From Promethearchaeota archaeon (GTDB lineage: Archaea; Asgardarchaeota; Lokiarchaeia; Sigyniarchaeales; SOKP01): a DNA stretch of 64,000 bases. Under the pieces are notes generated by a model. The model did not search any database, was not told the DNA's origin, and was given only the letters and a program-made list of their open reading frames with translations. How positions within the stretch are numbered: position 1 is the first letter of the stretch; each line of letters begins with the position of its first letter. Positions 25,157 through 44,594 of this stretch are shown in pieces. The position numbers and the translations under genes are program-made. The DNA lies in the NCBI GenBank assembly GCA_048939995.1, contig JBHLOY010000002.1, forward strand, positions 192,001 to 256,000, given 5' to 3'.

Positions 25157-26944
25157 ATGGGTGTAAACCAGGACGAACCAAAGAAAAAAACTCCTAAAAA
25201 AGTAATTATATCATTAAGAAAACATCCAGTTATAGTGTATGGAATAATCGGTGTTCTGGCTGTAGCTGGTGTAGTTGGTGGCATCTATCTTTTTACTACT
25301 CCCAATGATTATCCTGACTTGATTATTGGTACAAATTATGGGATTATAGTATCTCTTGATCCCTTTGATAATAATACTCCAATGAATCATGATATTACAA
25401 GTCAAATTGCTGAAGGTTTATTTGATTATGCGACAGCAAGCGACAATTCTCAGCTTATTCATAATTTAGCTATAAGTCATACTTGGAGTAATGATTATTT
25501 AAACCTTACTTGTAATCTTAGGCAAGGCGTCAAATTCCATGACGGAACTGCTTTAAATGCTGCATCAGTTAAATGGAATTTTGATCGAATATGTAATCTT
25601 ATGGATCTTAATATGAGCACAAGTTTTGCTAATGATTTTTGGTTATTTCCAAAAGAAAAAAGACTGGAAAATGATGGAAAAAGAATTCTCAATGAAACGC
25701 AAATTATAAATGATTATACCATTCGTTTCATACTAAACAGTCCTTATACTCCATTTCTTGATTTATTAGCTTCTATATATGCATATATATATTCTCCAAC
25801 ATCTACTCCTTATGATGATTTTATTCCCTTGAGTGGACCAATAATTGGAACTGGTTCTTTCATTTATGAAGGTTATATAGAGAATGAAAAAATTATCTTA
25901 TCCTCAAATCCTTTCTATTGGAGAGGGCAACCTAAGATAAATAAATTAATTTTTCTAATCCTTAATAAGACCGCTCGCTATGAAGCTTTATTATCAAGGG
26001 ACATTTCAATGCTTTGTGGTTATAATCATCGATATGATGCAACATCTGATTCTATTTATTATGATGATTCCATTGATGTAGATTCATTTTTTAATCACCC
26101 TTCTGTTATAGTTCAAGAAGGACCACCTCTTTTCCAATTTACATATCTAATCATGAACAATGAATTGATCAATGTAACAATGAGAAAAGCAATTTCTTAT
26201 GCTCTTAATTATTCGTTAATAATCGATGAATTAATCAATGGACATGGAATAAGGGCGAAATCTCCAATCCCAGAGGGGATGCAATACTCAAACTTAACGG
26301 ATATTAACTATCCACACCATAATGTCTCCAAAGCAAGGCGTGTTTTGAAAGATGCAGGATGGCCTGGAACTTTTTCTTTATCTGCTAATAATAATGTTTC
26401 AGTTGGAAATGAGTGGGAAAATTTGGTTACAAATAATACTCCTCTAGAAACATATAATTTTACCTACACAGCTTCAGAAGGTTCCTTTTTATCACAGATT
26501 TTTTTTCCCTTACTAGCAGATGACCTTAAACAAATAGGAATTAAATTAGAACCAGCTATAATTACACGGGCTGAATGGCATGCAATCGTTCATGAAATAG
26601 GTGGTTATCATTTAAACATGATCAATTTTGCTTTATTAGATACTAACGGACCAAAATTCAATGATCCATCCACTATTATACAAGATTTATATTTAAGTGG
26701 AGGTTTTGACAATCTTGGTCAAGTTAACGACACTTTGGTCGAATCATGGATGGAACAGGTGTTAGGAGAACCTGATGAAAAATTAAGATCACAAATCTAT
26801 TATAATATTCAAAAACATCTAGTTGAAGAAGTTTTTCCATCTTGCTGTCTTTATCGGAAAAATTATTTAAGTATTTTCAGATCTAACCTAAGAGGATGGC
26901 AAGTCCACCAGTTTAAGTCAAATTATAAGGACATTTTTTTTTAA
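25157..26944 (+). CDS. family-5 (OppA/DppA-like) solute-binding protein, N-terminal TM anchor; copy 1
   Basis: LRQGVKFHDGT..NA..V.WN.DR, IGTG.F, NP.YW, MRKAISYA. Confidence 0.9.
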   Translation: MGVNQDEPKKKTPKKVIISLRKHPVIVYGIIGVLAVAGVVGGIYLFTTPNDYPDLIIGTNYGIIVSLDPFDNNTPMNHDITSQIAEGLFDYATASDNSQLIHNLAISHTWSNDYLNLTCNLRQGVKFHDGTALNAASVKWNFDRICNLMDLNMSTSFANDFWLFPKEKRLENDGKRILNETQIINDYTIRFILNSPYTPFLDLLASIYAYIYSPTSTPYDDFIPLSGPIIGTGSFIYEGYIENEKIILSSNPFYWRGQPKINKLIFLILNKTARYEALLSRDISMLCGYNHRYDATSDSIYYDDSIDVDSFFNHPSVIVQEGPPLFQFTYLIMNNELINVTMRKAISYALNYSLIIDELINGHGIRAKSPIPEGMQYSNLTDINYPHHNVSKARRVLKDAGWPGTFSLSANNNVSVGNEWENLVTNNTPLETYNFTYTASEGSFLSQIFFPLLADDLKQIGIKLEPAIITRAEWHAIVHEIGGYHLNMINFALLDTNGPKFNDPSTIIQDLYLSGGFDNLGQVNDTLVESWMEQVLGEPDEKLRSQIYYNIQKHLVEEVFPSCCLYRKNYLSIFRSNLRGWQVHQFKSNYKDIFF

Positions 26945-27949
26945 TTAATAATTATTTTTTAAATCTAATTCCAAAAAAAGTCCATTTGAATTATTAAATA
27001 AAAGATTGAAGTTACATTCAGTAAGATAATCATAAGATTTTAAATAATAAACATTTAGTACTGATGCCGGAGAATGATCAAATCCTTCAACCCCATCGAG
27101 AAGCCGAGGAAAACCAAGATCATTTGGATTGTAATATAATATAAAATATGCACCAACATCTAGGTCATCATCTTCATACTTAAAGTGAATATTTCCAATT
27201 TTATGGGAAATAATCCCTGAAATATTAGCTTTCATGTTATTATGTTGAAATATATCAATAAATATGTCACCCTCCCTAGTAGAAAGGAATAAAGAAATAT
27301 TTTGATTAAGTTGTAAGTTATAGGACTTAAAAAATAAATCTCCCTCATCTTGAATTATTCCTGTGATATTACCTTTTAAAATACAATATGAAAAATCAAA
27401 TTGAATATCACCTTTATAAAGATTAACTATTATATTCTCCACAGAAATGCCAAACGGAACGATTATCTGAGTATCTCCTTGAACTCTAACTCTAATATCT
27501 ATATCACAAATCACATTTGCACTGAGAAAAATTAAGATTTGAATGACTTCAAGCAAGGATAATACCTCTATTAGGCTTAATTCTGGCTTGATTCTCATTG
27601 TAAAATTTACATACTCACTTGTATTTTGCCAATTAAAATCAAAATAGTCTAAATATGATTTTCCTGCTAAGCCTGAACCAATCATTTCAATATTTATATC
27701 TAATTTCGCATAATAATTAACTGGATTTACAATGTATTCTATTTCAACATCTCCTATGTCAATATCAATATTTAGTTCTTCCATATTTGAGGAACTGCTA
27801 GGATTATAAAAATATTGTAAAGTTTTATTGATATTACCGGATGTCGCAAGATTTGTTGAGAGAATGACGATAGGTAAGGAAAAAATGATGCTGAAGCTAA
27901 ATATAATCCCTAAAATGATAACTCTAATAGATTTATTTCGCATCATCAA
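26945..27949 (-). CDS. membrane-anchored DUF4097-like surface protein
   Basis: N-terminal TM; ELNIDIDIGDVEIEY and GD/GN beta repeats; paralog of 31685, 42418 and 10214. Confidence 0.75.
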   Translation of the reverse strand: MMMRNKSIRVIILGIIFSFSIIFSLPIVILSTNLATSGNINKTLQYFYNPSSSSNMEELNIDIDIGDVEIEYIVNPVNYYAKLDINIEMIGSGLAGKSYLDYFDFNWQNTSEYVNFTMRIKPELSLIEVLSLLEVIQILIFLSANVICDIDIRVRVQGDTQIIVPFGISVENIIVNLYKGDIQFDFSYCILKGNITGIIQDEGDLFFKSYNLQLNQNISLFLSTREGDIFIDIFQHNNMKANISGIISHKIGNIHFKYEDDDLDVGAYFILYYNPNDLGFPRLLDGVEGFDHSPASVLNVYYLKSYDYLTECNFNLLFNNSNGLFLELDLKNNY

Positions 27950-28055
27950 TTCTTCACATTAATAGGGCAAAAAACTTAAATAAATAATCAATTAATGATA
28001 TAGGGAAGAATATTATTTAAATCAAATCTCTAGGTATTAATTAAGTCTAACAACA

Positions 28056-28080
28056 TTCGAATTTTGGGTGAAGTCTCGAA
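28056..28080 (+). promoter_or_regulatory. 25-bp palindromic operator, copy A
   Basis: ttcgaattttgggtgaagtctcgaa, followed by gtcaaatct. Confidence 0.7.
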
Positions 28081-28153
28081 GTCAAATCTTTGATTTTGCA
28101 TTAAAGGCTAGCTTTTCTATAAGAGATAACTAGCTGGTTTTGGGTGCAAAAAA

Positions 28154-28193
28154 TTCGGACTTTGTGTGAAGTTTCGAAGCTAATTCTAAAAAT
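28154..28193 (+). promoter_or_regulatory. operator copy B plus TCTAAAAAT box
   Basis: ttcggactttgtgtgaagtttcgaa-gctaat-tctaaaaat, upstream of 28296. Confidence 0.8.
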
Positions 28194-28295
28194 TAATTGG
28201 TAGGATAAATTCTAATTGGCACTAATTTAACTACTGAAATTGTTGCCTTAACCAATTTAAATAAAAAAACAATCACAGAAAAAAGGTTTAAAAAA

Positions 28296-29609
28296 ATGAA
28301 AATGAAAACAAAATCAGGTATACTTATTGGAATTTTTACAATAGCAATGATAATCGGAGTTTTTACTTTGATAATTGGACCAGTCCGCGCTGATTCACCT
28401 ACTTTTATAGTATTTCCATCAGGTGGAGATGATACCGCAAACATCCAAACAGCATTCAATGATGCTATTGCAGCAGGACCAGGAAGCATAGTTCAATTGA
28501 CTTCAGGACAATTTTACACGAACGCTATTTTTGTTGAAAATTTCTATGGTACGTTTAAGGGGGCAGGCAAGCACAGTACTAAAATTGATGTACTTAAAGG
28601 TTTGGATAATACATTAGAGGGAGTAGTTGGTCCTGGTGGACCTTATTTATTTACGTTTGTAGGAGGAGATGTACACATCTCGGATTTAACTTTTGATATT
28701 ACACCTTATATGCCTGCTGAACCATGGGAAGATCCAGAATACCCATCATACGATTTAATATCAATTATCTTACTAACTGGCGAAACTAATTCCCGAATCG
28801 AAAATGTCAAATATATTGGACATGAAGGTACACTAGTTAATCCATTAGGAATAGGCTTTAATGTTAGAGTAGGAGTTGAATATCACTTTGGAACGGGAAA
28901 ACACATTATTACTAAATGTGACTTTGATTCGATATGGGGGGCTATTTCAGCATATGGATTATCTAATGTTGAAATGAAAATTTCATCAAATACAATTAAA
29001 GGAGGTAACTTCGGAGTAATTAATATGGATAATATCAATTCAAAATTTGAGATTACTTATAATGAAATAGAGACAATGTTTATATATGGCATATGGGCAT
29101 GGCAAGCAGGAATTATAGTTCCACCTACCCCTTCCCAGTGGAAAATAACTCATAATACTATAAGAGTGTCAAATCTTGCGGATGGTATAGGTTTAATGGA
29201 TGATCTACCTGAGAAATCACTTGAAGCAGTTGTCTCCCATAATAAGATTACTTTAGATAATACAATGTGGGGAGGCATTTGGACAGCGGGGATGCGGGAT
29301 ACTTTTATCTCTAACAATATCATTCGCGGTACAGGAGACTATGGCATTGCATGTGCTTTTCCCGAAAACAACTTATTGCTTGGAAACAATGTCCAAAATG
29401 TGGATGCCTCATGGGCTCCCATTGTCTTGATTTATGCAAGCGAATGTGTAATAGTTGGAGGATCTACAAAAACAAATGTCCTGGATATTGCTGGTTCCAA
29501 TAATATCATAGTTGGGATGAATAATATACAAGGCAATTCACCAGGCCCAGAAATCCAAGAAGCAATGGAACAAAAGAGGGAACTTATTCATTTGTTCCCG
29601 AAATTTTAA
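28296..29609 (+). CDS. secreted right-handed beta-helix (pectin-lyase/NosD-like) protein
   Basis: Signal peptide ending VRA-D, GGDDTANIQTAF motif, repeated ISxNxI / HNxI / GI turns. Confidence 0.8.
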   Translation: MKMKTKSGILIGIFTIAMIIGVFTLIIGPVRADSPTFIVFPSGGDDTANIQTAFNDAIAAGPGSIVQLTSGQFYTNAIFVENFYGTFKGAGKHSTKIDVLKGLDNTLEGVVGPGGPYLFTFVGGDVHISDLTFDITPYMPAEPWEDPEYPSYDLISIILLTGETNSRIENVKYIGHEGTLVNPLGIGFNVRVGVEYHFGTGKHIITKCDFDSIWGAISAYGLSNVEMKISSNTIKGGNFGVINMDNINSKFEITYNEIETMFIYGIWAWQAGIIVPPTPSQWKITHNTIRVSNLADGIGLMDDLPEKSLEAVVSHNKITLDNTMWGGIWTAGMRDTFISNNIIRGTGDYGIACAFPENNLLLGNNVQNVDASWAPIVLIYASECVIVGGSTKTNVLDIAGSNNIIVGMNNIQGNSPGPEIQEAMEQKRELIHLFPKF

Positions 29610-29643
29610 CAAAACCTATTTCCTTTTCCATATATTTGTAATA

Positions 29644-29703
29644 AAATAGAAAATGGAGGATAAATAAAAGCTTAATCCTCCAATTCTATTTCTTTTTTTT
29701 TTT
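29644..29703 (+). terminator. conserved 3' hairpin plus T-tract, copy 1
   Basis: aaatagaa-aa-tggaggat...atcctcca-a-ttctattt followed by T11. Confidence 0.7.
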
Positions 29704-29855
29704 AATTAATCAGGCTATAATGAGGGGTTTTGGAAGTTTTAATCAATAGGCGATCAAAAGTTTTAATTACGAAACTATCTAATTATGATTTTATAAGAAT
29801 ATGAAATCTGATAGATCGATTTTATTACTTAAAAATAGATTAACTGAAAATTAAA

Positions 29856-31637
29856 ATGTCTTTAGACAATAAAGGTTCAAAGAAAAAAATTCCTAAAAAG
29901 AAAGTTAGAGTAATAAAGAAAAAACCAGTTGCAGTTTTTGGAATAGTTGCTGCTGTGGCCATAGCAGGGATTATTGGTGGAATAACTATCTTTTTATATT
30001 CACCAGAGGAAAAAATTATATATATCTCATTCACAGATTTAGCTGCAGCTCAATCTGGTATTGATCCTCTTATAACCTGGGTTCCAGCTGATTATGAGAT
30101 ACTTAATCAAGTTGCTGAAGGTTTATTTACCCATGATTCAGCTAATCAACAATCCCAAATAATTCATAACCTTGCTATAAATCATTGGAGGAATGATAAT
30201 GCTACAGAATATACCTTTGAACTGAGACAAGGGGTTCAGTTCCATGATGGAACACTATTTAATGCAGCAGTGGTTCAATGGAATATTGATAGAATATACA
30301 CTTTAATTGAAAATGGTAAAATGCACTTTACTTCAAAACAGTTCTGGTTATTTTCCGATGGGACATGGATTATAAACCGTACTGAAATTATTAATAATTA
30401 TAATATAAAGTTTGTATTAAACAAACCTTATATCCCTCTTACTGCATTATTAGCTTCTGTTAATTCATTTATGGTTTCACCTACCTCAACACCTCAAAAC
30501 GATTTTATTCCACTAAACGGAACATTAATCGGAACTGGTCCTTATTTGTATGACGTTTGGAATAAGGATTATAATTTAGTACTCTCTTCCAATCCAAATT
30601 ACTGGGGCGGTAAACCTCAAATTGATAAGTTGATTTTCAAAGATTATGTAACTCCAGAAGATAAATTTGAAGCATTGATTTCTGGAGAACTTTCAATGTT
30701 AAGTGGTTACAATGAAATACACTCTCATGGTCATTATTGGGATTCCCTTGGAATTTATGATAATGATGTCCTGAATACTTTTATGAATGATCCTGATATT
30801 ATAGTAGAAGAAGGTCCTTCAGCGACCTATTTTGAATACTTACTGATGAACAATGAATTAATTAATGCAACTATGAGAAAAGCAATCTCTTACGCTTGTA
30901 ATTATTCAGCTTATATAGATAAGTGGTTAAGCGGTCATGGAATGAGACTTAGATCTCCTATTCCGGAAGGAATTTTATACTCAAACTCAACCGGTATTGA
31001 TGTTCCCTATTATAATATTTCTATAGCGCGACAAACTTTAAAAGAAGTGAATTGGAACGGATTAGCTAGTGCTTTACCTGCTGATGATAACATTTCTGCA
31101 GGTAATGAATGGGAACAATTGATAATTGACGGAACACCTTTAGCTACTTATAATTTTACATACATTAGTGGTATGCTAAATGGTATAGTTTTTTTAAATA
31201 TAACAAAAGAAAATCTTAGACAAATTGGAGTAAAAGTAGAAGCTGTTCCACTTTCTCCTGGAGAATATATACAAATTTTTTGGGAAACACCTCCTTATCA
31301 CTTAAATATGATTGAACTTTCACATATGGGGTATATTACAAGATTTAATGATCCTTGTAGTATTATCAACATTTTATGTTCAAATAAAGCTTTAGATTTA
31401 AATTATTGTCAAATAAATGATACTTTAGTTCAGCAATGGATGGAAGAGGCTCTAGGCGAAACCAATGAGGCTATAAGAGAACAGTTATATTATCAAATTC
31501 AAAAGCGTTTAATTGAAGAGGTTTTCCCGATGTGTTATCTGATTGCAAGAAATTGTTTTAAAATTTATAGATCCAATTTAAAAGACTTTGAGTTTAACCA
31601 TTTTAATCCTGTTTACAAAGATATCTACTTTATTTGA
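29856..31637 (+). CDS. family-5 solute-binding protein; copy 2
   Basis: LRQGVQFHDGT, IGTGPY, NPNYWG, MRKAISYA. Confidence 0.9.
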   Translation: MSLDNKGSKKKIPKKKVRVIKKKPVAVFGIVAAVAIAGIIGGITIFLYSPEEKIIYISFTDLAAAQSGIDPLITWVPADYEILNQVAEGLFTHDSANQQSQIIHNLAINHWRNDNATEYTFELRQGVQFHDGTLFNAAVVQWNIDRIYTLIENGKMHFTSKQFWLFSDGTWIINRTEIINNYNIKFVLNKPYIPLTALLASVNSFMVSPTSTPQNDFIPLNGTLIGTGPYLYDVWNKDYNLVLSSNPNYWGGKPQIDKLIFKDYVTPEDKFEALISGELSMLSGYNEIHSHGHYWDSLGIYDNDVLNTFMNDPDIIVEEGPSATYFEYLLMNNELINATMRKAISYACNYSAYIDKWLSGHGMRLRSPIPEGILYSNSTGIDVPYYNISIARQTLKEVNWNGLASALPADDNISAGNEWEQLIIDGTPLATYNFTYISGMLNGIVFLNITKENLRQIGVKVEAVPLSPGEYIQIFWETPPYHLNMIELSHMGYITRFNDPCSIINILCSNKALDLNYCQINDTLVQQWMEEALGETNEAIREQLYYQIQKRLIEEVFPMCYLIARNCFKIYRSNLKDFEFNHFNPVYKDIYFI

Positions 31638-31684: not shown

Positions 31685-32686
31685 TTAATAATTATGGAGT
31701 TCTAGTTCTTCATAAATACCAATTGGAAAATTAAACATCCAATGATAATTATATAATGAGGGATAATCATCAGAAGTTATATGATAAACATCTGTCCCGT
31801 TTACTGCGATCACATTGTATGCAAAACCTATAAGCTCAGCAATTTTTTGATTAATAGCATAATCATCTGGGTGTACATGTAATATAAAGTATGCTCCAAC
31901 CTCAGCGGTATTGTCTCTATAAGTCAATAGATAATTACCCGTAATTATTGTGATATTCCCAGTTACATTAGCATTAGTAGCTTTATTCTGAGAGATTTCA
32001 ATATATACATCACCATCATTAGTATAAAGGGACCAATTGCAATTTTGCGTGTATTCCACATCATAACTTCTTACTTTTATATCCCCTGTGTTTTGAATAA
32101 TTCCAGAAATATTTCCTTCTAGAATACAATAAAAGAAGTCATATTGAATATTACCTTTCATCAAATTGGTTATGATATTTCCAACTGAGACCCCAAGAGG
32201 AATAGTTGCTTTAGAGCTTCCTCTAATATCAACCATAGTATTGATATCATAAAGTACATCAGCTTTAAGTGCTACGATTATATCAACATTTTTTATCAAA
32301 GATAAAATATCACCTTGCTTTATGCCTTTTTTTAACTCCATTGTAAAATTTACAATAGTGCTTGTATTTTGCCAAAGGATATCGAAATAATCTATATGCG
32401 ATTTTCCAACTAAACCTCGACCAATCATTTCAATATTTATATCAATTTTTGCACAATAACTTATTGGATCTGTTATATATTCAATTTCAACTTCTCCTAT
32501 ATCGATATCAATATTCAGTTCATTCAAAAATGAAGGTGAGCTAGAATTGTAATAGAATTGAAGAGATTCATCTATTCTGCCATAAGATGAGAGACTTATT
32601 GAAAAAATAACAATGGGCGTCGAAAAAATGATAATTAAACTGAATATAAGCATTATAATGATAATTCTAATATCCTTCCTTACCAT
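31685..32686 (-). CDS. membrane-anchored DUF4097-like surface protein
   Basis: ELNIDIDIGEVEIEY; close paralog of 26945. Confidence 0.75.
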   Translation of the reverse strand: MVRKDIRIIIIMLIFSLIIIFSTPIVIFSISLSSYGRIDESLQFYYNSSSPSFLNELNIDIDIGEVEIEYITDPISYCAKIDINIEMIGRGLVGKSHIDYFDILWQNTSTIVNFTMELKKGIKQGDILSLIKNVDIIVALKADVLYDINTMVDIRGSSKATIPLGVSVGNIITNLMKGNIQYDFFYCILEGNISGIIQNTGDIKVRSYDVEYTQNCNWSLYTNDGDVYIEISQNKATNANVTGNITIITGNYLLTYRDNTAEVGAYFILHVHPDDYAINQKIAELIGFAYNVIAVNGTDVYHITSDDYPSLYNYHWMFNFPIGIYEELELHNY

Positions 32687-32802
32687 TGTTAAATCTTTCC
32701 AAGAGTAGATAACAAAATTACAAATAATGATATAGGTGAGAATACTATTTAAACCAATCCGTAAAATGCCTTGCTAAAGCGGGTTTTAGTATACTTATAA
32801 TA

Positions 32803-32843
32803 TTCGAACTTTGAGCGAAGTTTAGAAGCTATTTCTAAAAATA
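32803..32843 (+). promoter_or_regulatory. operator copy C plus TCTAAAAATA box
   Basis: ttcgaactttgagcgaagtttagaa-gctatt-tctaaaaata. Confidence 0.8.
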
Positions 32844-33047
32844 GATACCATGTTTAGTTAAACCATTGTCTAAAGTTTTTGTGTGTTACAATGTGTTTCT
32901 TTGTTTTGCTAAAATATTGTAAAAGACCCTACCAATTAATCATTCTTTTTTTTTAGTATTTTTTCTTGAGCATAATTTTTTTATATACATAACCCTTATA
33001 AGCTAATTATTAGAATACTATTATTGTGGTGATTCCACCCAATTCTC

Positions 33048-34049: not shown

Positions 34050-34074
34050 AATAATTAATAGGAAGGTAAAGCTT

Positions 34075-34284: not shown

Positions 34285-34303
34285 TATTTTCATAATTTCT
34301 AAT

Positions 34304-35566: not shown

Positions 35567-35619
35567 TTGAGTAAATTTAAAATTTTAGTAAAATATCTTA
35601 AAACATTACAGGAATCAAA

Positions 35620-36114
35620 TTGACGTTATTCGAAAAAGATTTTCTATTTCCAGTATACATCGATAAAAATACTTTAAATCATATTGATGAATTATGCAAA
35701 AATTCTGATAGAGAACTTTTTGGCTATTTAATTGGTTTAATTTTAAAATGGAAAAAGAATAAATATATTATTATAAAAGAACAGATTTATATTAAAAATA
35801 CAGTTAGAAGTAATAAATTTAACACATCCCAAATTGAAGGAACTGCTGGAAAATACGAACAGGAATTTCAAAAGTTGAAACATAGTATGAGGAACGAGAA
35901 TTTACGAGTTGTAGGATGGTGGCATTCCCATATCAATTTAGGGTGCTTCTTATCCTTAACTGATATTCATACACAAGAATATTTTTTTCCTGAACCTTAC
36001 CAAGTTGCATTAGTAGTTGATCCTATTCGAGAGGAATACAAATTTTTTACATTAGATGCAGGCTCAAAAAAGAAATACAAAACGCTAAGTTATGCTATTA
36101 TATCTTCAACTTAA
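35620..36114 (+). CDS. JAB1/MPN/Mov34 (Rpn11-like) metalloisopeptidase
   Basis: ELFGYLIG, VVGWWHSH...FLSLTD, VALVVDP JAMM motif. Confidence 0.92.
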   Translation: MTLFEKDFLFPVYIDKNTLNHIDELCKNSDRELFGYLIGLILKWKKNKYIIIKEQIYIKNTVRSNKFNTSQIEGTAGKYEQEFQKLKHSMRNENLRVVGWWHSHINLGCFLSLTDIHTQEYFFPEPYQVALVVDPIREEYKFFTLDAGSKKKYKTLSYAIISST

Positions 36115-36131
36115 CAATTTAGTTTATATCT

Positions 36132-37013
36132 ATGCGTAAGAAAGAAAATCAAGGAATTAAAGTGATTGGAACGGATTCCATAGATTCAGATAGATTCGAT
36201 CGCCAAAAGAGAATTATTGGTTGGGATCAAACTATTATTTCTAATGCGACAATTATGGTAATTGGTGCTGGAGCTACTGGAAATGAAGTTATAAAAAATT
36301 TAGCTTTAGTCGGAGTTGGAAAGATATTTTTAATTGATTATGATTTCATTGAAACTTCAAATTTAAGTCGTTGTGTGTTGTTTAACCCTAAAGTAGCAAA
36401 GGATAAAGAATACAAAGCAGATGTTATTAAAGATGTGTGTAGAGACTTAAATCCTGATGTCGAAGTTGTTTCAATTAAAAAAGACTTAAATTCAATAGAT
36501 AAAACTCTTTATAGCAAGTGTGATGTAATATGTTCTTGCTTAGATAATCTTGAAGCACGGATAGAAGCTAACAATTATGCATATTATAATCGAATTGCTT
36601 TTGTTGATTCTGGGATCGACGAATTTTTTGGTTCAGTTCAAGCAGTATATTCAGAAGTTGAAAATTCAGCTTGTTTGCAATGCGGTATATCAGAAAAGGA
36701 TTTGGATTTAATGTGGAAAAAATTTTCTTGCACTGGAGAGGAATTAAGGTCTGAAGAAGGTGAAACCACAAATAAAATAGCAACAATCATTACGACTACT
36801 TCAATAATAAGCGGTATTCAATCTCAGCAGGTTTTAAAATTTTTACTTGGAATTAAATATTATAAGGAAGATAAAAAATGGAATCCTTATATTGGAGCAC
36901 CATTGGTTGGTAAGCAATTAATTTATAATGGCCTAACAAACAGTTTCAACATTATTGATAAAATAAAAGATCCAAATTGTTGGACTTGCTCATACAAAAA
37001 ATCTAAGATTTAA
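36132..37013 (+). CDS. ubiquitin-like activating enzyme E1 (ThiF/UBA family)
   Basis: RFDRQ, GAGATG, DYDFIETSNLSR, CLDN..AR, CLQC, FSC (catalytic Cys), CWTC. Confidence 0.93.
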   Translation: MRKKENQGIKVIGTDSIDSDRFDRQKRIIGWDQTIISNATIMVIGAGATGNEVIKNLALVGVGKIFLIDYDFIETSNLSRCVLFNPKVAKDKEYKADVIKDVCRDLNPDVEVVSIKKDLNSIDKTLYSKCDVICSCLDNLEARIEANNYAYYNRIAFVDSGIDEFFGSVQAVYSEVENSACLQCGISEKDLDLMWKKFSCTGEELRSEEGETTNKIATIITTTSIISGIQSQQVLKFLLGIKYYKEDKKWNPYIGAPLVGKQLIYNGLTNSFNIIDKIKDPNCWTCSYKKSKI

Positions 37014-37030
37014 ATTAGGAGGAAATATGG

Positions 37031-37558
37031 ATGCCAGAATTACCCTTTGAGATATGGAAAGAAAGAGTAAATAATGAGATAAAGATCCTAAGAAATATTA
37101 GCCTCATTGAAAATAAATCTATAGCATGGCATGATAATAGTGTAGAATTATGGATTAATTTAAGTGCCTTTGGATTCGTTAAAAGAGAAATTGAAGGAGT
37201 TATCAATGTAAAACCTCAGATGAATCACCGAATTCTCATTAAAATAAATAGATCCTTTCCATATCCAGGAGGGATTGATTTTGCTTGGTATTCAGAAATA
37301 TTTCACCCAAATATCCATCCCATTGAATTAAAAGGATTGAAAACTATAGGCACAGGTTATATTTGTTTAAATATTTTAAGACAATGGACAAAATTATCAG
37401 ATTTGGAAACTACAGTTAAATCCCTTGAAAAATTAGTAGAGAATCCCAATCCAGAGGATCCTCTTCAATATGATATTTGTATTGAAGCTGCTGAATTCTT
37501 TAAAAGAAATTCAATTCAAGAACTTAAAAAGATTTATAAAAAAGAAAATTATATTTAA
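37031..37558 (+). CDS. ubiquitin-conjugating enzyme E2
   Basis: FPY..., IFHPNI, GYICLNIL..W, L..L...PNP.DPL. Confidence 0.92.
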   Translation: MPELPFEIWKERVNNEIKILRNISLIENKSIAWHDNSVELWINLSAFGFVKREIEGVINVKPQMNHRILIKINRSFPYPGGIDFAWYSEIFHPNIHPIELKGLKTIGTGYICLNILRQWTKLSDLETTVKSLEKLVENPNPEDPLQYDICIEAAEFFKRNSIQELKKIYKKENYI

Positions 37559-37824
37559 GAATTAAAAAACAAACCTCCAATAACTTTTGTCCATAACATC
37601 AAAATATCATATTCTTTTAACCCAAATTTATGAATTGCCTCCCTAATTGATATTGCATTCGGTAATTCCTTTTCCTTATACACTAAAGCATAAGAACGTT
37701 GTTCTGAACTTATAAAACCCATATGTTTAACAACAATTTCTATAATACGCTCTATTATATGATGTTCCTTTACATCTAACTTTATTCTTTTGCCTGTTCT
37801 GGTATCTTCTATTGATAATTTCAT
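37555..37824 (-). CDS. ubiquitin-like protein with GG and 5-residue C-terminal propeptide
   Basis: beta-grasp pattern, GLKEYDIL.L, ends TKVIGG-LFFNS; convergent with E2. Confidence 0.85.
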   Translation of the reverse strand: MKLSIEDTRTGKRIKLDVKEHHIIERIIEIVVKHMGFISSEQRSYALVYKEKELPNAISIREAIHKFGLKEYDILMLWTKVIGGLFFNS

Positions 37825-37875
37825 TTTTTTTTTTTAATTTTTCTTTTAAAGACAAATAAATTTATTCAACTAATC

Positions 37876-37915
37876 ATTTTTAGATTTGAGTTCGAAACTT
37901 TTCACAAAGTTCGAA
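37876..37915 (-). promoter_or_regulatory. operator copy D plus TCTAAAAAT box upstream of the Ubl gene
   Basis: Minus strand reads ttcgaactttgtgaaaagtttcgaa-ctcaaa-tctaaaaat, ending 52 nt before the Ubl ATG. Confidence 0.82.
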
Positions 37916-37922
37916 TTAGAGA

Positions 37923-39218
37923 TTATTCTTGTTCTTTCAACTTTTTATTAATTTCATCCAATATTTTATATTTTGGAAAATCTTTTAAAATTGAGGTTAA
38001 AATGGTTTTTTCTCTTTTTATTCTGTTATAATCCTCTAATTTTAGGTTAATTATATTTTGGAAAGCTAAACCCTTAAACTTGTCTACTAAATCATCTGAA
38101 ATTGTCTCTTTTTGATATTTCCCGAATAAGAAATTGATGTAATCTGGTACAAATTTCTTTAGAGGTGATTTTATATTTCTATCAAAGAGTTTATCAGAAA
38201 TATCATTTAAAATATTGTCTAATAAATCTACGGTTTGTGAATTTCTTTCTTCTTTAGAAATATCAGGTTGTAATCTTTTGAGATAACTAAACTTTAGAAT
38301 GTTCTCATCTATAATTAAATGCAACATTTTATCAATTTTGTCATCCTCTCGAAAATAATATACCACTTCATCATTAAGTCTTAAATTGAAAAATTTTGTA
38401 TCATATAAATCCTCTTCAGTAATCTTTTGCGTACAAAAAGTAAGTGTAGCTAGTTTAATATTATATTTAAGAGAAAAATTTTCTTGTGAAATATATTCTG
38501 GATATCGACTTGGATGATTTATAGAAAGAAATAATAATATTTTATAAAAATCTTCTTTTGATGGGAGTATATTCTCAATGAAGCTATAATTCAAATGATT
38601 GATTAAATCTAGAAATAAAATTTCAATTTGGCTATCTTCAACATTCTGCTCTTTAAGAAACCTTCTGACGTTTTCTTTGATACTTTCTATTTTATCTATT
38701 TCTTCTTCTAAAACTGATTGATAATCTAATTGGTATCTTTTCAGCATTTTATTATATCGTTCCTCACCTATTCTAGTGATTCTGTATTCCATGTTTTCAC
38801 TATCAACAAAACCTTTTTTCATTAAAAGATTTAAATATTTTGATAGAGAATTATGATTGAGAGAAAGAGGTTTTTCAATAAAATCTGACCACTTTAAATA
38901 GTCGTTATTAAATAACATCCACAAGATGATATGAGCATAATTTCTCTTGTTTAAAATGATCTCTGGAGGATATCTTAATTTTCTCTCAAATGAATCTTTA
39001 AATTTTAAATCTATATATCTTTTTTTACCTTCAGCAGTAGCTAGATAAACTCCTTTACTCTTTTTCTCAACATATCCGTTTGAAATTAATAATTTCATGT
39101 ATTTAGACAATGTAGCTAAGCTGATTTCTAACGGCTCATCTAAAAAGACAGACCAATTACATTCCTCATTATTATTAAGCATCCAGAGGATTATATATTC
39201 AAAATCTTTCTTCTCCAT
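37923..39218 (-). CDS. tandem winged-helix DNA-binding protein (candidate regulator)
   Basis: Two repeats of IILWML.NN...WS.F...PL.....LSKY...L...G.V......Y..T..G. Confidence 0.8.
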   Translation of the reverse strand: MEKKDFEYIILWMLNNNEECNWSVFLDEPLEISLATLSKYMKLLISNGYVEKKSKGVYLATAEGKKRYIDLKFKDSFERKLRYPPEIILNKRNYAHIILWMLFNNDYLKWSDFIEKPLSLNHNSLSKYLNLLMKKGFVDSENMEYRITRIGEERYNKMLKRYQLDYQSVLEEEIDKIESIKENVRRFLKEQNVEDSQIEILFLDLINHLNYSFIENILPSKEDFYKILLFLSINHPSRYPEYISQENFSLKYNIKLATLTFCTQKITEEDLYDTKFFNLRLNDEVVYYFREDDKIDKMLHLIIDENILKFSYLKRLQPDISKEERNSQTVDLLDNILNDISDKLFDRNIKSPLKKFVPDYINFLFGKYQKETISDDLVDKFKGLAFQNIINLKLEDYNRIKREKTILTSILKDFPKYKILDEINKKLKEQE

Positions 39219-39427
39219 GCCTGATGGGTTAATTAAATCTTCTGGAGGATAATTGATTTTTTTAGCACAGATTTTATTTATACACCTATTATTATTTCTT
39301 TATTTTAATTTTCAATTAAATTTTGAGTAATCTCGCTTATATATAAGATATAACAAATATGTTTAAAAAATTTCATTTAAAAATAAAAATCCTCATATTC
39401 AATATTTTTTATTTAAATAACTCAAAC

Positions 39428-39452
39428 TTCGGATTATATGCAAAATTCCGAA
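39428..39452. promoter_or_regulatory. operator variant, copy E'
   Basis: ttcgga-N13-tccgaa, same 25-bp length, between the regulator and 39596. Confidence 0.55.
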
Positions 39453-39481
39453 CTGTTTCTTGGAATAATAAGTGGAAGATA

Positions 39482-39522
39482 TTCTAAGTTCGCTAAAGGT
39501 TTCGAACTTAAATCTAAAAATA
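39482..39522 (+). promoter_or_regulatory. operator copy E plus TCTAAAAATA box
   Basis: ttctaagttcgctaaaggtttcgaa-cttaaa-tctaaaaata. Confidence 0.72.
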
Positions 39523-39595
39523 AAGATTAAGCATAATAACCAATTGACACAAATTTGCCAAAAAAGAAAAAGAAAAAAAAAAAAGATGAAAAAAA

Positions 39596-40366
39596 ATGAA
39601 TAGAAATAACCTATCTAAATTGATTCTCTTAACCTTTCTGATGTTCGCTATTTTCAGTTTTATACCAGTAGTTGCAGCAAGCTCAGGTAATGCAACCAAA
39701 AGACCATTAGATGATTGGTTAGATCCGAATTACGCTGCTTTCCCGTGGGGCGAAGAAAATTGGGCTTTTTATGACTTTTGGAGCCCTTATTCTGGTTTAG
39801 TGACGAAGATGGGGTTACCTTGGCCTTTGGCTGGCTTCGGCCCATTTGTTAACGACATGATATACGAAAATAGTTTAGTAATAGGAGATACTATAATTGA
39901 TGGTAATATTAAAGAACGAGCATTAAACGATGGAACTGCTTTAATAACCCTGCAATTAAATGTGAAAAACGCTCCATGTTCAGTTTATGATTACTTCGAT
40001 TTTATTCTTTACTGTCTTGGGGCTGCTCCTTACCCTCAAGCCGTATTGGGAGATGGAATTGATGGGTATATCGATTATACCGTGTTAGTTAAATTTTATA
40101 TCCCTGAACCTGGAGCAGAGCTACCAAATGTATTTGATATGTGGTATTATTATGTCTCGATTAATATTCACGGTATTGGTTATGGAACATTAACAGAACG
40201 TGCAGTTGAGCTCGGTTTTGCCGAAACTGCTGGTGCACCAGGAATGGTAGAACTTCATCACATAGCCCTTTTTAAGCCTGATTTCAAAGAAACTCATCCT
40301 AAATATGATCCATTTTATGGTGATTTATGGCCAGTTGACTCCGTTGAAGTTTATGAATTGAGTTAG
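39596..40366 (+). CDS. secreted protein of unknown family (paralog of 43681)
   Basis: Signal peptide; RPLDDW, NVKNAP, HGxGxGT, HPxY, LWxVD shared with 43681. Confidence 0.8.
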   Translation: MNRNNLSKLILLTFLMFAIFSFIPVVAASSGNATKRPLDDWLDPNYAAFPWGEENWAFYDFWSPYSGLVTKMGLPWPLAGFGPFVNDMIYENSLVIGDTIIDGNIKERALNDGTALITLQLNVKNAPCSVYDYFDFILYCLGAAPYPQAVLGDGIDGYIDYTVLVKFYIPEPGAELPNVFDMWYYYVSINIHGIGYGTLTERAVELGFAETAGAPGMVELHHIALFKPDFKETHPKYDPFYGDLWPVDSVEVYELS

Positions 40367-40422
40367 AAGCAGATTAATGGAGAGAAATACCAAGTGAGGG
40401 TTGAAATTTTTAAATAATAATA

Positions 40423-40508
40423 TAGAACAAGGAGGAAAAAGATTAGAATAATGGCTTCTCGAATGACCACATCCAAACCACTATTCCTCCATTCTTTTTT
40501 TTTTTTTT
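40423..40508 (+). terminator. conserved 3' hairpin plus T-tract, copy 2
   Basis: tagaa-caa-ggaggaa...ttcctcc-a-ttct then long T run. Confidence 0.62.
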
Positions 40509-40643
40509 AAAATATTCTTTTTAATTTTTGCTTCTTTTTAGATTCTGATAAAATTATATCTTAAATCTGATTATCATAGACAGAAAAGTTTAAAAATAGA
40601 ATCAACTAATCTTCAAGTTATACATAAATGTGAATTCTATTAA

Positions 40644-42356
40644 ATGATTAAAATGATAGAAAAAGCTTCTTCTAAAAAAAGATTTCCTAATATCAAAGAA
40701 TTCAAGAAAATAATCATAGTTGGAGGGTCAATAATAAGCTTAGCGATAGTTGGGATTATAAGTGGAATTATTATTATGGGAGATATCCCGCAAGGAGGTA
40801 TTCTTAAAGTAGGTATAACTAAACCTATTGGAGAAATTGACCCTCTTATGTATAGCTTTTCTTCAGAAGAAATAGTAATTAATCATGTTACCGAGACGTT
40901 ATTTGATAATATTTATATAGGTGGTAAATCTCAAACTCTTCCTCATCTAGCATTAGATGGAAATTGGAGTTCGGACTACCTAAATTTCACATGCACACTT
41001 AGAAAGAATGTCATGTTCCATGACGGAACGCCATTTAATGCTGCAGCCGTTAAATGGAACTTCGATAGAATTCCTCAAATTATCGATCCATCACTTCCAG
41101 ATTGGTATTGGTGGGCTTACCTATTTCTTTTACCAGATGGGCGCTGGATTGTAAATAAAACTCTAGTCTTAGATTCCCATATTGTAAAATTTGTTTTAAA
41201 TGATGTTTTTGTACCTTTTCGAGAATTATTAACTCATAGTACTACAAGTATTTTATCACCATCATCAACCCCTGCGGATAAACCCCTAAATATACACATT
41301 GATAATTTAGTTGGAACCGGTCCTTTTATATATGATGGTTATGAACCTAATGTCAATATGTCATTATCTCCTAATCAGAATTACTGGGGAGCAAAACCTA
41401 AAATTGATGAGGTAATTTTAAAGTTTTATTCTCCAACTAATCGTACTAATCGTATTAATATTTTATGGAATGCGCTTTTAGCAGGAGAAATTCATATAGT
41501 AGACCGAGATTTTATTAAGTTTTTAATAATGTACTATCCAGACCGATCTATCGAACTCCTTAAAGGAGTTGCAGGAATTACAGTTCAACAAAAGCCTACT
41601 ATAAGCAATTATTATGTTTTTTTTTATCCTAAACTTGTTAATAGTACAATGAGAAAGGCAATATCTTATGCAATTAACTATTCTAATATACTTGAAATAG
41701 TTCCTAACTCTATAACAGCCAGATCCCCAATTCCAGAAGGTATCTCTTACTCTAACATTACTGGTATTGACATTCCTTATTATAACATTTCAAAGGCGAG
41801 ACAGATGTTAATTGACGAAGGTTGGCCTGGAACAGCGGGTTTAACGGCAAATGACAATATTACAGCAGGAAACGAATGGGAACAATTAGTAACTAATGGA
41901 TCCCCTCTTGCAATATATAATTTATCTTATTATACAGAGAATCCATACAATGAATTACCACCAATTCCTTTTCCAGAAAATCTTAAACAAATTGGAGTCA
42001 ATGTATCATGTCGATCAATTTGGAGTGGTGCTCCGTCTCAACTTGAAACATTAATGTGGATGTATGACTATAACGATCCACACACTGGTATTATGATGGA
42101 TTATCATTCAAAATGGACTTTATGGACCGACTTTAATGTTAGTGTATTAGATGAATTGATAGAAGAAGGAATTAAGGAGATAAACCCTGTTTTAAGAGAA
42201 GCGATATACTATAATATTCAAAAACTTATAATCGAGGAAATTTGTCCTGTTATATTTACTCTCTCTCCACGAAATTTAGATATATATGCATCAAATTTAA
42301 TGGACTGGCAAATTTATCCATTCAAAATAGTATTTAAAACAGTTCACTTCGTCTAA
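40644..42356 (+). CDS. family-5 solute-binding protein; copy 3
   Basis: LRKNVMFHDGTPFNA, VGTGPF, NYWG, MRKAISYA. Confidence 0.9.
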   Translation: MIKMIEKASSKKRFPNIKEFKKIIIVGGSIISLAIVGIISGIIIMGDIPQGGILKVGITKPIGEIDPLMYSFSSEEIVINHVTETLFDNIYIGGKSQTLPHLALDGNWSSDYLNFTCTLRKNVMFHDGTPFNAAAVKWNFDRIPQIIDPSLPDWYWWAYLFLLPDGRWIVNKTLVLDSHIVKFVLNDVFVPFRELLTHSTTSILSPSSTPADKPLNIHIDNLVGTGPFIYDGYEPNVNMSLSPNQNYWGAKPKIDEVILKFYSPTNRTNRINILWNALLAGEIHIVDRDFIKFLIMYYPDRSIELLKGVAGITVQQKPTISNYYVFFYPKLVNSTMRKAISYAINYSNILEIVPNSITARSPIPEGISYSNITGIDIPYYNISKARQMLIDEGWPGTAGLTANDNITAGNEWEQLVTNGSPLAIYNLSYYTENPYNELPPIPFPENLKQIGVNVSCRSIWSGAPSQLETLMWMYDYNDPHTGIMMDYHSKWTLWTDFNVSVLDELIEEGIKEINPVLREAIYYNIQKLIIEEICPVIFTLSPRNLDIYASNLMDWQIYPFKIVFKTVHFV

Positions 42357-42417: not shown

Positions 42418-43467
42418 TTATTCAATATAGGGTATACTTGTCAGATCCATGTCAAAATTTCCCTCTAGGATTTCAAACCTGATATTGTAATAATACTTAA
42501 CGATGTTAAGTAGTAAATCATCTGATGTAAAATAAAAAATACCCTCATATGTAGTATGTGCAATACGATTGAAATCAAAACCCTTTACAAGCGGACAGAT
42601 CAGACCAGGAACCTGCAATACACAAGTAGGAAATCCACTTTTATCCATGAATTCCCCTCCGTAGGGAATTTCAAGCATTGCACCAATATCAGCGCTACTA
42701 TCCTCATAAAGAACAAATATCTCTCCATTATTAACTTTGAATATCCCTGTTATGTTAGCACCAATATCTCTATATTGAAGAACTTCAATATCTATATTAC
42801 CCTCTCTAATGTTTATGTCCCAACTACTATTTTGAGCATATTGTACATCATTTGACTTGAAAATTAAATTTCCATCATTTATATTTCCAATTATGTTTCC
42901 TTGAATTGAACAGTGCTCAAAATTATACAAAATATTTCCATTGGAGACGTTTGTTAATAAATCTCTAAAGGAAACGCCATAAGGAATAGTTATTTCAAAG
43001 TTTCCTTTAGTTAGATTGGTAATAATATCAAATACAATATCTTTTCTAATATTTACAACGATGCTTATTTCTTTCTTTAACCAATATAGTGGATTAAACC
43101 AATCATCTGATATTATCTCCATTCTAAAATCTACTGGAAAACTTGAATTGTTCCAAGAAATGTTTAAATAATCATTGTACGATTGACCTGCTAAATTTTC
43201 CCCAATCAAGGCAATATTTACGTCTATTAACACGTAATAATCAACTGGGGGATCAATATATCTTATTTCTACATTTCCCTCATCAGCGTTAATGTACAAC
43301 TTTTCAATAGATGCTGGTGAGCTTGGTTCATAAGTAAAAGAACAAGATTCGTAAATATGGTCATACAATGAAGACCTGAATGATAATAATTGGATTGGAA
43401 TAATTATTATAAGGGAACCCCATAAAATAACCAATATAGCTACTCCAATAACAATTTTTTTCGCCAT
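42418..43467 (-). CDS. membrane-anchored DUF4097-like surface protein
   Basis: IEKLYINADEGNVEIRY and repeated GN turns; paralog of 26945 and 31685. Confidence 0.75.
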   Translation of the reverse strand: MAKKIVIGVAILVILWGSLIIIIPIQLLSFRSSLYDHIYESCSFTYEPSSPASIEKLYINADEGNVEIRYIDPPVDYYVLIDVNIALIGENLAGQSYNDYLNISWNNSSFPVDFRMEIISDDWFNPLYWLKKEISIVVNIRKDIVFDIITNLTKGNFEITIPYGVSFRDLLTNVSNGNILYNFEHCSIQGNIIGNINDGNLIFKSNDVQYAQNSSWDINIREGNIDIEVLQYRDIGANITGIFKVNNGEIFVLYEDSSADIGAMLEIPYGGEFMDKSGFPTCVLQVPGLICPLVKGFDFNRIAHTTYEGIFYFTSDDLLLNIVKYYYNIRFEILEGNFDMDLTSIPYIE

Positions 43468-43587
43468 TTTTAAATCTATTAATTACAAACAATTAATTCT
43501 ACAATCAATTAGATAAGGTAATTATCTATTTAAATTAATCCCTCAACACTTTTTTTTTTTGACCCTAAAACAGTACAAATTTTAAAA

Positions 43588-43628
43588 TTCGAACTTTGCG
43601 CGAAGTTTCAAAGTCAAATCTAAAAATA
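43588..43628 (+). promoter_or_regulatory. operator copy F plus TCTAAAAATA box
   Basis: ttcgaactttgcgcgaagtttcaaa-gtcaaa-tctaaaaata. Confidence 0.82.
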
Positions 43629-43680
43629 AGATTGTCGACCAAATATCAATCACAGCAATTTAAAAAAAAAGTGAAATCAA

Positions 43681-44478
43681 ATGAACAAAACATATAGAGG
43701 ACTTTTATCAATAACATGTTTAGCAATTTTTGGGATTTTAATCATGGGCGCTATACCAGCAGTACAGGGAGCCTCTTCGATTCAAAGGCCACTTGATGAT
43801 TGGTTTTATGATGTCTTTGGTTTCGATATGAATTATCATGTAGGAGGTTGGGTTGATGGATATCAGGTAAGACCTCAAGGCATAGATTATGATACGACTA
43901 CTGATGAGTGGATCTATCAACCGATTTGGGAATGTACATATGATGGCTATATCCTTGATAGAGATATGCATGATGGCCGACATATGATTACAGTTAATAT
44001 TAACGTCAAAAATGCTCCAGTTATCGTTGCTCCACCTTTTGGGAGTGGAGGATACTATTGGGTCTTCCAAGGTACTATGAATTATAATTATGAATATAAA
44101 TTCATAGTAGATCTAGCAGAATGGGCTTGGTGGTTGATTTTTTTGGAATTTGATGATGATGGCTTTGATGAAAATGGAAATATCCTGTTACCTAGATGGG
44201 ATATACCTATGGTTTATGGCTCAATCTTCGGATTTGAATTCATTTCAGTGCATTTTCATGGCGAAGGAGAAGGAACAATAGTCAATTACTGGGATGAATC
44301 CTGGGTGGGAAATGGAGATCGTATTTGGGAACCAGATGAATCAGCAAAATTGAGTACCAATATGCTTGGACTTGTAAAGGATGATTTTAAACTAGATCAT
44401 CCCAATTATTGGCCCTCTGAATATTCTAGTATACCTTGGAGTGTATTATGGGCAGTTGACTTTGTAAAATTACATTAA
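43681..44478 (+). CDS. secreted protein of unknown family (paralog of 39596)
   Basis: Signal peptide; acidic and aromatic-rich; motifs shared with 39596. Confidence 0.8.
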   Translation: MNKTYRGLLSITCLAIFGILIMGAIPAVQGASSIQRPLDDWFYDVFGFDMNYHVGGWVDGYQVRPQGIDYDTTTDEWIYQPIWECTYDGYILDRDMHDGRHMITVNINVKNAPVIVAPPFGSGGYYWVFQGTMNYNYEYKFIVDLAEWAWWLIFLEFDDDGFDENGNILLPRWDIPMVYGSIFGFEFISVHFHGEGEGTIVNYWDESWVGNGDRIWEPDESAKLSTNMLGLVKDDFKLDHPNYWPSEYSSIPWSVLWAVDFVKLH

Positions 44479-44508
44479 ATTGCTAAAAGAAATTGCTTTC
44501 AATATTAT

Positions 44509-44594
44509 ATATAGAACTGGAGGATTATGACTAAAGAGAGGGCGTTCCAAGAGACTTTATTATAATTCCTCCTTTTCTATATTCCTTTTTTTTT
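44509..44594 (+). terminator. conserved 3' hairpin plus T-tract, copy 3
   Basis: atatagaa-ct-ggagga-ttatga...ttataat-tcctcc-tt-ttctatat then T9. Confidence 0.7.

Follow-up and report, generated by a model that had tools for sequence, protein, structure and literature searches.

Do the secreted proteins encoded beside the ubiquitin operon of an Asgard archaeon move in and out of a fixed genetic frame, as cassettes do, or has the locus grown by duplication and loss around a shared operator? The question is raised by a stretch of 64,000 nucleotides, referred to below as the window, from a Promethearchaeota archaeon of the Lokiarchaeia (GenBank assembly GCA_048939995.1, contig JBHLOY010000002.1, here C17, positions 192001-256000). 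In it, three convergent gene pairs, each encoding a solute-binding protein (SBP, or S) and a Toastrack/DUF4097-like protein (T), stand among copies of a palindromic operator (op) with a TATA box. Several of these copies precede the gene for a secreted protein, here called X where its type does not matter, followed by a hairpin. The locus flanks an Asgard ubiquitin operon (33-38 kb) on both sides. An earlier note on this DNA had read the arrangement as conserved flanks with exchangeable cargo, like a cassette system for variable secreted products.

The source genome comprises 3.75 Mb in 38 contigs with about 30% G+C. Homologs of the window's proteins are found only in metagenome-assembled genomes (MAGs) of Promethearchaeota/Lokiarchaeia type, and the locus was compared with 135 genomes of the same family, from 13 genera, all of which are MAGs and are designated by G numbers. 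The anatomy of the locus is modular. It is probably a lineage-specific regulon and gene island around the ubiquitin-like operon that evolves by duplication, deletion and replacement of open reading frames (ORFs), with no dedicated machine for cassette exchange. One module is the convergent S-T pair, with its own conserved promoters, multiplied by tandem duplication. The other is a short unit that consists of the operator with a weak TATA box, a leader, a signal-peptide protein and a terminator made of the hairpin and a T-run.

The operator and the genes behind it

The operator is a 45-nt palindromic repeat followed by a TATA box. Six copies are present in the genome, all within a 16-kb stretch of the window (28.0-43.7 kb), with nhmmer E-values between 7e-8 and 2.5e-11 against the whole genome; the next match has an E-value of 0.06, and nhmmer found no further copy elsewhere in the 3.75 Mb. 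The consensus derived from 21 strong copies in 7 genomes is ATTCGAACTTTG-N4-AAGTTTCGAAG-N-TAAATCTAAAAAT and is conserved across these copies, the TATA-proximal part included. Two TTCGAA hexamers form the core of this imperfect palindrome, which directly abuts a weak TATA-like box. Every unit has its own copy, with 52-102 nt from operator/TATA to the start codon, and transcription is predicted to start about 25 nt past the CTAAAAAT box. At no more than 3 mismatches, the operator occurs in 18 of the 135 family genomes and in 2 of the 13 genera, and the reversed pattern, used as a control, has 0 matches in the 135 genomes. Where the downstream gene can be read, the operator always precedes either a ubiquitin-like gene or a signal-peptide protein.

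Two tandem copies precede BH, a secreted right-handed beta-helix protein (28296-29609, plus strand; Pfam Beta_helix 1.3e-7, NosD 1.4e-4) with a signal peptide in its translation. Copy 1a (28053-28095, plus strand; E 1.6e-9) has an intact palindrome and a degenerate TATA box and is conserved in the nearest species, G010, while copy 1b (28152-28195, plus strand; E 5.3e-11) is the BH promoter. The second type of cargo is represented by CargoA (39596-40366, plus strand), from a secreted, Asgard-only family with 48 homologs, none of which has a Pfam domain, and by its distant paralog CargoB (43681-44478, plus strand; 23% identity, E 6e-12). Their promoters are the operator/TATA copies at 39480-39522 (plus strand; E 7.3e-8) and 43586-43629 (plus strand; E 2.5e-11), respectively. 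Both proteins are unrelated to BH. The AF2 model of CargoA (pLDDT 84) is a curved beta-sheet, for which Foldseek against the PDB gave only E > 0.6, VIA-align a best Z of 6.0, and the ESM Atlas and Pfam nothing.

A solo operator/TATA (32801-32843, plus strand; E 6.1e-10) has no ORF behind it. This agrees with the count in the earlier note, which had the slot filled by a beta-helix protein once, by an unrelated family twice and by nothing once. The note had also allowed that the two cargo families might prove homologous, which would have reduced the locus to simple tandem duplication; a right-handed beta-helix and a curved beta-sheet without a PDB match do not bear this out. The solo copy is peculiar to the window's genome and is missing at the same place in G010, G021, G041 and G043. 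Behind it come some 100 nt that contain no ORF, then a T9 run (32944-32952) and the TTTTTTTATATA promoter of the adjoining RING-like gene, a promoter that is conserved in G010 (window 32801-32975). The solo operator may thus give rise to a short transcript or to read-through into the RING operon.

The sixth copy, absent from the list in the earlier note, lies on the minus strand (37875-37917; E 1.3e-10), 52 nt upstream of a gene for an 89-aa ubiquitin-like modifier (37555-37824, minus strand; Pfam TUG-UBL1 E 1e-3). Immediately upstream of this operator is a candidate regulator of 431 aa (37923-39218, minus strand), a winged helix-turn-helix (wHTH) protein with two tandem winged-helix domains (Pfam HTH_45 in two stretches, HTH_34, MarR) and a helical C-terminal part of about 260 aa. 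The gene order wHTH-operator-Ub is retained in 11 genomes. Since its targets include the ubiquitin-like gene, which neighbors the wHTH regulator, the operator is considered an element of a regulon: the same palindrome is found at a fixed distance from the TATA box in several units, it is conserved in relatives, and the gene for a DNA-binding protein adjoins it. The placement of an operator unit after each S-T pair, as first described, needs one correction, as the copy at 39480 is present but follows the wHTH gene rather than a pair.

It appears from this arrangement that the wHTH protein binds the operator and that the secreted proteins are produced at the same time as the ubiquitin-like modifier. 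Activation is a more likely mode of action than repression, because the operator sits just upstream of a poor TATA box. Contig C37 of the same genome (around 24400-24700) encodes a peptide that closely resembles the N-terminal end of the wHTH protein; it lies about 160 nt from the weak operator match with E 0.06 and may belong to a paralogous regulator. A scan of metagenomes with the right half of the operator yielded 16 loci, which were discarded as chance AT-rich matches, as none has the left half-site or passes the operator HMM.

The units end in a hairpin followed by a T-run. A short-loop form stands after BH (29647-29703, plus strand), and a long form with a conserved interior stands after CargoA (40423-40508, plus strand) and CargoB (44512-44594, plus strand). 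The strict motif, TAGAA..GGAGGA...TCCTCC..TTCTAT with a T-run, occurs 4 times in the genome: after these three genes and after a Cargo paralog on contig C28. Looser hairpins are found behind the remaining dispersed Cargo paralogs (C26, C28b, C6 and C38), three of which (C26, C28b and C6) have a different, TGATCA-palindrome promoter. Both basal stems are invariant in sequence across the unrelated cargo types. However, the short-loop form is found behind all BH orthologs and the long form behind Cargo genes, and because the form changes with the ORF and follows the dispersed paralogs, the hairpin belongs to the gene and not to the slot. The claim that a conserved hairpin bounds the slot is therefore correct for the arms after BH, CargoA and CargoB but not for the form of the element, nor for the empty slot, which has only its T-run; the likeness of the empty slot to the 3' arm of a hairpin is not significant (score 26-28 against 19.5 +/- 3.3 for shuffles).

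An alignment of 12 long copies shows only the two basal stems and no compensatory change, so that there is no covariation that would indicate an RNA structure. Scans of the window with Rfam (at the gathering threshold) and for tRNAs gave no matches. The hairpin was also considered as a miniature inverted-repeat transposable element, which was rejected, since the genome has no more than about 9 copies, all of them in a single orientation and immediately 3' of genes from one set. The promoter shared by the Cargo paralogs at C26:8198, C28:281953 and C6:12727 consists of ATGTTAAATATTA followed by a TGATCA..GATCA palindrome and does not recur elsewhere in the genome. The Cargo family thus seems to have a second small regulon.

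The solute-binding and Toastrack-like pairs

All three pairs consist of real, convergent ORFs, as had been noted. SBP1 (25157-26944, plus strand) is an orphan family-5 solute-binding protein and faces T1 (26945-27949, minus strand); SBP2 (29856-31637, plus strand) faces T2 (31685-32686, minus strand), and SBP3 (40644-42356, plus strand) faces T3 (42418-43467, minus strand). The SBPs match SBP_bac_5 (PF00496) strongly across the whole domain, with E-values of 4.7e-57 (194 bits), 5.9e-48 (164 bits) and 2e-52 (176 bits), respectively, all above the gathering cut-off of 32.4 bits, and each has an N-terminal hydrophobic membrane anchor. Identities are 48% between SBP1 and SBP2 and 37% between either of these and SBP3; for the T proteins, they are 47% (T1/T2), 37% (T1/T3) and 39% (T2/T3). 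S and T have thus diverged in step, and the pair was therefore duplicated as a unit. This matching divergence, together with synteny in G010, is that of a tandem paralog array.

The name DUF4097-like is right for the T proteins at the level of the fold, as judged from a model. The AF2 model (pLDDT 88) has an N-terminal transmembrane (TM) helix and then a single-stranded beta-helix, and Foldseek matches it to "putative adhesin" structures in the PDB (4qrk, E 2.5e-8; 3pet, 1.1e-4; 3lyc, 4opw and 4ygu) with probabilities of 0.93-1.0. At the level of Pfam the name does not hold for T1-T3, which have no match at E <= 0.01 and do not reach the gathering score of PF13349 (Toastrack, DUF4097); in the T family as a whole, 2 of 22 members match PF13349 weakly, with a best E-value of 0.0016. 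The family is restricted to Promethearchaeota.

The pairs have promoters of their own. The region upstream of T1 (27989-28025, minus strand), whose TATA box is GTTTAAATA as read on that strand, is 86% identical across 37 nt to that upstream of T2 (32721-32757), in agreement with the earlier note's remark on conserved T promoters, and the core GTTTAAATA...ATATA is retained before nearly all T orthologs in the relatives. The 300 nt upstream of T2 are nearer to the T1 type (0.67-0.70) than to the corresponding region in G010 (0.53), as if the upstream region of T2 had arisen by gene conversion from T1. The coding region of T2, however, gives no signal of conversion, which leaves this origin as no more than a suggestion. 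SBP genes of the S1/S2 clade likewise have an upstream motif, GATCAAAAACCTTAATTAYGAA..TCTAATT, that is independent of the gene upstream (window 24978-25156 and 29720-29855, and in relatives).

No genes for a permease and an ATPase adjoin the SBPs, and every ORF from 24 to 46 kb has been assigned. No ABC permease domain (PF00528, BPD_transp_1) was found in the window; the nearest on C17 is at 379 kb, and the other BPD_transp_1 genes of the genome are on other contigs or far off on C17. An ABC importer operon was thus considered and rejected, as no permease and ATPase stand beside the SBP genes. The pairs, which have their own conserved promoters and no transporter partner, are more likely to act at the membrane beside the RING-like protein than in import.

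The multi-TM RING-like gene is immediately preceded by an S-T pair whose T gene is divergent from it (window 31685-34049; in relatives, loci L031-L038, L041, L043, L046 and L048). This adjacency is found in 10 of the 10 genomes in which both were recovered, including those without the operator, and is better conserved than any cargo. A fourth, distant T paralog of 412 aa (10214-11452) lies beside an ABC exporter of MacB/FtsX type and converges with its permease and ATPase genes (window 10214-13459), and this type is the sole relative of T in many genomes of the genus.

Turnover of the secreted proteins

The secreted proteins are the part of the locus that turns over between species. The turnover is not seen in the nearest species: on the 78.5-kb contig of G010, gene content and gene order match those of the window at 67-99% amino acid identity, with the same cargo in the slots (83-99%), the sole exception being the absence of the solo operator after T2. 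The earlier note had named fixed cargo as a sign against exchange, and G010 counts against exchange on this measure. In more distant operator-bearing genomes, however, the cargo differs at both of the positions that can be anchored by neighboring genes.

After the first anchor, AlaX, the operator is followed by BH in G018, G048 and G052, by a CargoB-like gene in G042 and by U189 in G111, whose likeness to Cargo is limited to the signal peptide. G041 has two successive units there, with U238 (unrelated to Cargo; hhalign probability 0.7%) and then a CargoB-like gene, and the window's genome and G010 have the S1-T1 pair at this position. Divergent from the second anchor, the wHTH gene, are CargoA in the window's genome and G010, BH in G041, another Cargo subfamily in G107, a weak solo operator in G043 and, in G042, G111 and G124, a NosD-type beta-helix protein with a C-terminal anchor (Pfam NosD 6.5e-25), which matches BH only at E 0.04. 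In all, at least four unrelated types of ORF stand behind the operator across the genomes. The recurrent unit among the relatives is operator-X-hairpin-S-T, after which comes either the RING-like gene, from which T is divergent, or a further pair; the phase S-T-operator-X is seen only in the window's genome and G010.

The genomes also retain traces of individual events. The block BH-hairpin-S2-T2 lies to the left of the ubiquitin operon in the window and to its right in G041 (82/79/61% identity). Within the SBP subclade b1 (SH-aLRT 100), the gene upstream is BH in G043 and a Cargo gene in G041 and G042. In the G042 unit, the first 48 nt past the TATA box are a leader of the BH type, which aligns with that of G043 at a score of 26 (shuffles: mean 6.1, sd 2.3, max 19) and does not align with other Cargo leaders. 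Downstream, homology between G043 and G042 restarts only at the conserved SBP promoter, and the replaced segment therefore includes the hairpin. Compared in this way, the two sequences show that an ORF has been replaced in place at least once, while the operator and leader in front of it were kept.

Empty units can arise by internal deletion, as G049 shows (L073, 1250-1545, reverse strand). A decayed unit after AlaX consists there of an operator, a leader, a start codon and a Cargo-like signal peptide that is joined directly to the long hairpin, the mature part having been lost by deletion. Between AlaX and the hexapeptide-repeat genes, this genome also lacks the entire S-T/ubiquitin block.

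These events bear on the ways in which the locus might have formed. If an ancestral operator-cargo-hairpin-S-T block had simply been copied three times, with the copies diverging and the cargo never exchanged, the parallel divergence of S and T, the homology of CargoA and CargoB and the identical order and cargo in G010 would all be expected. Such a history is unlikely, since BH and Cargo differ in fold yet share the operator and the hairpin stems, since at least four unrelated types of ORF are found behind the operator, and since it is already contradicted by the comparison of G042 with G043, where BH and Cargo stand upstream of the same SBP subclade behind a homologous leader. Functional triads would join each X, perhaps an enzyme or a factor that releases a ligand, to the binding protein and the membrane partner encoded by the next S-T pair, with co-adapted blocks inherited and swapped whole; they would account for the movement of BH-hairpin-S2-T2 as one block. 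They would also account for the position of X and its hairpin, which immediately precede S and share its strand in the window's genome as well as in G010, G041, G042, G043, G044, G018, G107, G111, G137 and G012. However, pairs without X exist (the RING-proximal pairs of G043, G021 and G044, and S1-T1 here), as does an X unit without a following pair (CargoB here), and BH is found upstream of three SBP subclades while one subclade has two different X proteins, which makes such triads quite unlikely. An artefact, in which repeats in a MAG produced a chimeric or falsely repeated locus, is conceivable in so far as all the genomes are MAGs and the tract at 39300-41100 is so similar to G010 that it could stem from cross-assembly. 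It is extremely improbable, as the paralogs, at 37-48% identity, are too diverged for collapse or false duplication, the same order is found in the independently assembled G010 contig, and related orders are found in more than 10 other MAGs.

An integron-like system, in which the hairpin or the operator is a recombination site and a dedicated enzyme inserts and excises the secreted-protein ORFs, comes closest to what was first proposed. It would fit the invariant hairpin arms with a variable interior behind unrelated ORFs, the change of cargo at fixed anchor positions, the near-identical op-CargoA-hairpin tract common to the window's genome and G010, and two adjacent units in G042 that have near-identical operators and hairpins and different ORFs (a NosD beta-helix protein and a Cargo member). 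Nevertheless, it is very unlikely. The only match to a tyrosine recombinase (PF00589) in the genome is on contig C7, with no integrase on the window's contig, and none appeared in the loci of relatives, which were annotated only against the proteins of the window's locus. Every unit has its own promoter; the hairpin always has one orientation, is followed by a T-run as terminators are, and is also found behind Cargo paralogs elsewhere that have a different promoter. The 3' junction of the mapped replacement lies beyond the hairpin, and the cargo is unchanged between the two closest species. Neither an adjoining integrase nor promoterless cassettes with a common promoter nor junctions at the hairpin were found. 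What remains of the idea of kept flanks and exchanged cargo is that the cargo does vary behind a conserved operator; the hairpin is not a fixed flank, no recombinase is nearby, and this is not a cassette system.

The regulon and gene island therefore seems the better description. On this model, the wHTH protein would bind the operator, and the modifier gene and a variable set of secreted and surface proteins would be switched on together. The operator-driven protein turns over on a scale from species to genus, for which ordinary recombination would suffice, with the repeated promoters and terminators and the paralogous S-T genes as its substrates. Blocks would be duplicated or translocated, units would be emptied by deletions within them, and at least once the ORF would have been replaced while its operator and leader stayed.

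Several points weigh against the regulon and gene island. The only pointers to the wHTH protein as the one that binds the operator are its adjacency and co-occurrence. The loci of several relatives stop at contig breaks, so that cargo scored as absent may simply be unassembled. A plain terminator does not explain the invariant arms of the hairpin, which leaves room for a site recognized by a protein or a recombinase. Finally, a tract of about 1.8 kb (window 39300-41100), from the operator through CargoA and the hairpin to the 5' end of SBP3, is 98-99% identical in nucleotides to G010 (L032), whereas the remainder of the 28 kb in synteny, both genes and intergenic DNA, is 70-95% identical; this hints at either a recent exchange of a unit between species or cross-talk in MAG assembly. 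There is a slim chance that the frame from operator and leader to hairpin is a true expression slot, in which secreted ORFs, possibly behind a retained signal peptide, are exchanged by recombination that recognizes the arms. If so, these Asgard archaea would have a diversifiable secretome that is switched on together with a ubiquitin-like modifier.

Known systems and the ubiquitin operon

TrmB/TrmBL1 and the Thermococcales glycolytic motif are an archaeal example of a regulon with one regulator and a shared operator, in which a site upstream of the TATA box is linked to activation. The present locus resembles it in having a palindrome at a fixed position next to the transcription factor B recognition element (BRE) and TATA box of several units, with genes for a regulator and SBPs nearby. 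It differs in that two tandem wHTH domains are joined in one chain with a long helical tail, that the targets are a ubiquitin-like modifier and secreted proteins rather than sugar metabolism, and that the predicted regulon is confined to a 16-kb locus. The likeness to integrons (attC, IntI) lies in an array of short units that are each closed by an imperfect hairpin, whose arms are conserved while its interior varies, and in ORFs that vary between relatives. Unlike integrons, the array has no integrase near it, a promoter in each unit, a T-run after the hairpin, and hairpins also behind dispersed paralogs; its arms, TAGAA..GGAGGA and TCCTCC..TTCTA, are not attC core sites, and its cargo is stable in the nearest species.

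Bacterial Toastrack/DUF4097 proteins belong to envelope-stress systems and include LiaG and PspC-associated proteins (PMC11237479). The T proteins are similar in being membrane-anchored single-stranded beta-helices with a fold match to DUF4097-type "putative adhesin" structures, but they lack Psp or Lia partners and are instead convergent with an orphan SBP and divergent from the multi-TM RING-like gene. For a putative function of the S-T pairs, the bacterial parallel of the Toastrack proteins would be envelope-stress signalling. The SBPs, in turn, resemble those of the Opp/Dpp family 5 in their strong SBP_bac_5 match and in an N-terminal anchor, which is usual in archaeal binding proteins, but they have no adjoining permease or ATPase genes, and the partner gene encodes a Toastrack protein.

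In the archaeal ubiquitin operons of Caldiarchaeum (PMC5654768) and of Asgard archaea (PMC9192718), genes for RING-like, JAB, E1, E2 and ubiquitin-like proteins are clustered as they are here. The latter paper does not mention "solute" or "promoter" and uses "gene cluster" for Ub/ESCRT genes only; it therefore contains no description of the S-T pairs on either side, of the operator that the units share or of the units for secreted proteins. Both a local regulon and a tandem paralog island are known kinds of arrangement, of which the present locus is a new variant.

The main interest of the locus is its link to the Asgard ubiquitin system. The locus offers testable handles on what such systems do in the cell: a candidate regulator with its operator, secreted and surface proteins that are apparently controlled together with the modifier gene, and the conserved pairing of an orphan SBP with a Toastrack protein next to a membrane RING-like protein. 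The turnover separates the constrained parts (the operator, the S-T pair and its adjacency to RING) from the free secreted component, a pattern expected for proteins that face partners or the environment. As for cassettes, the cargo does vary, but no more than ordinary recombination within an island rich in repeats is needed to explain this.

Within the operon (33048-37558, plus strand; Pfam assignments) are genes for the multi-TM protein, whose RING-like finger is C-terminal, a small TM protein, a GTPase/TPR protein, a JAB protease, a ThiF-type E1 and a UQ_con E2. In loci L046 (G043), L041 (G044), L081 (G021), L085 (G018), L091 and L094, the interval from the GTPase/TPR gene to the ubiquitin-like gene lacks JAB, E1 and E2, although RING, wHTH, the operator and Ub are still present. 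The conjugation enzymes of these relatives must be encoded elsewhere or have been lost.

Other genes are associated with the locus in single relatives or a few of them. In L038 (G024), a Ras-family small GTPase (3382-3933; Pfam Ras 3.4e-41) lies between AlaX and the S-T pair, an arrangement seen in this one relative. A free AMP-binding (adenylating) enzyme of 609 aa is encoded in L053 (6727-8556) and in G041 (21208-23037); in G041 and G042, its gene has the last T gene on one side and those for the hexapeptide-repeat membrane proteins on the other.

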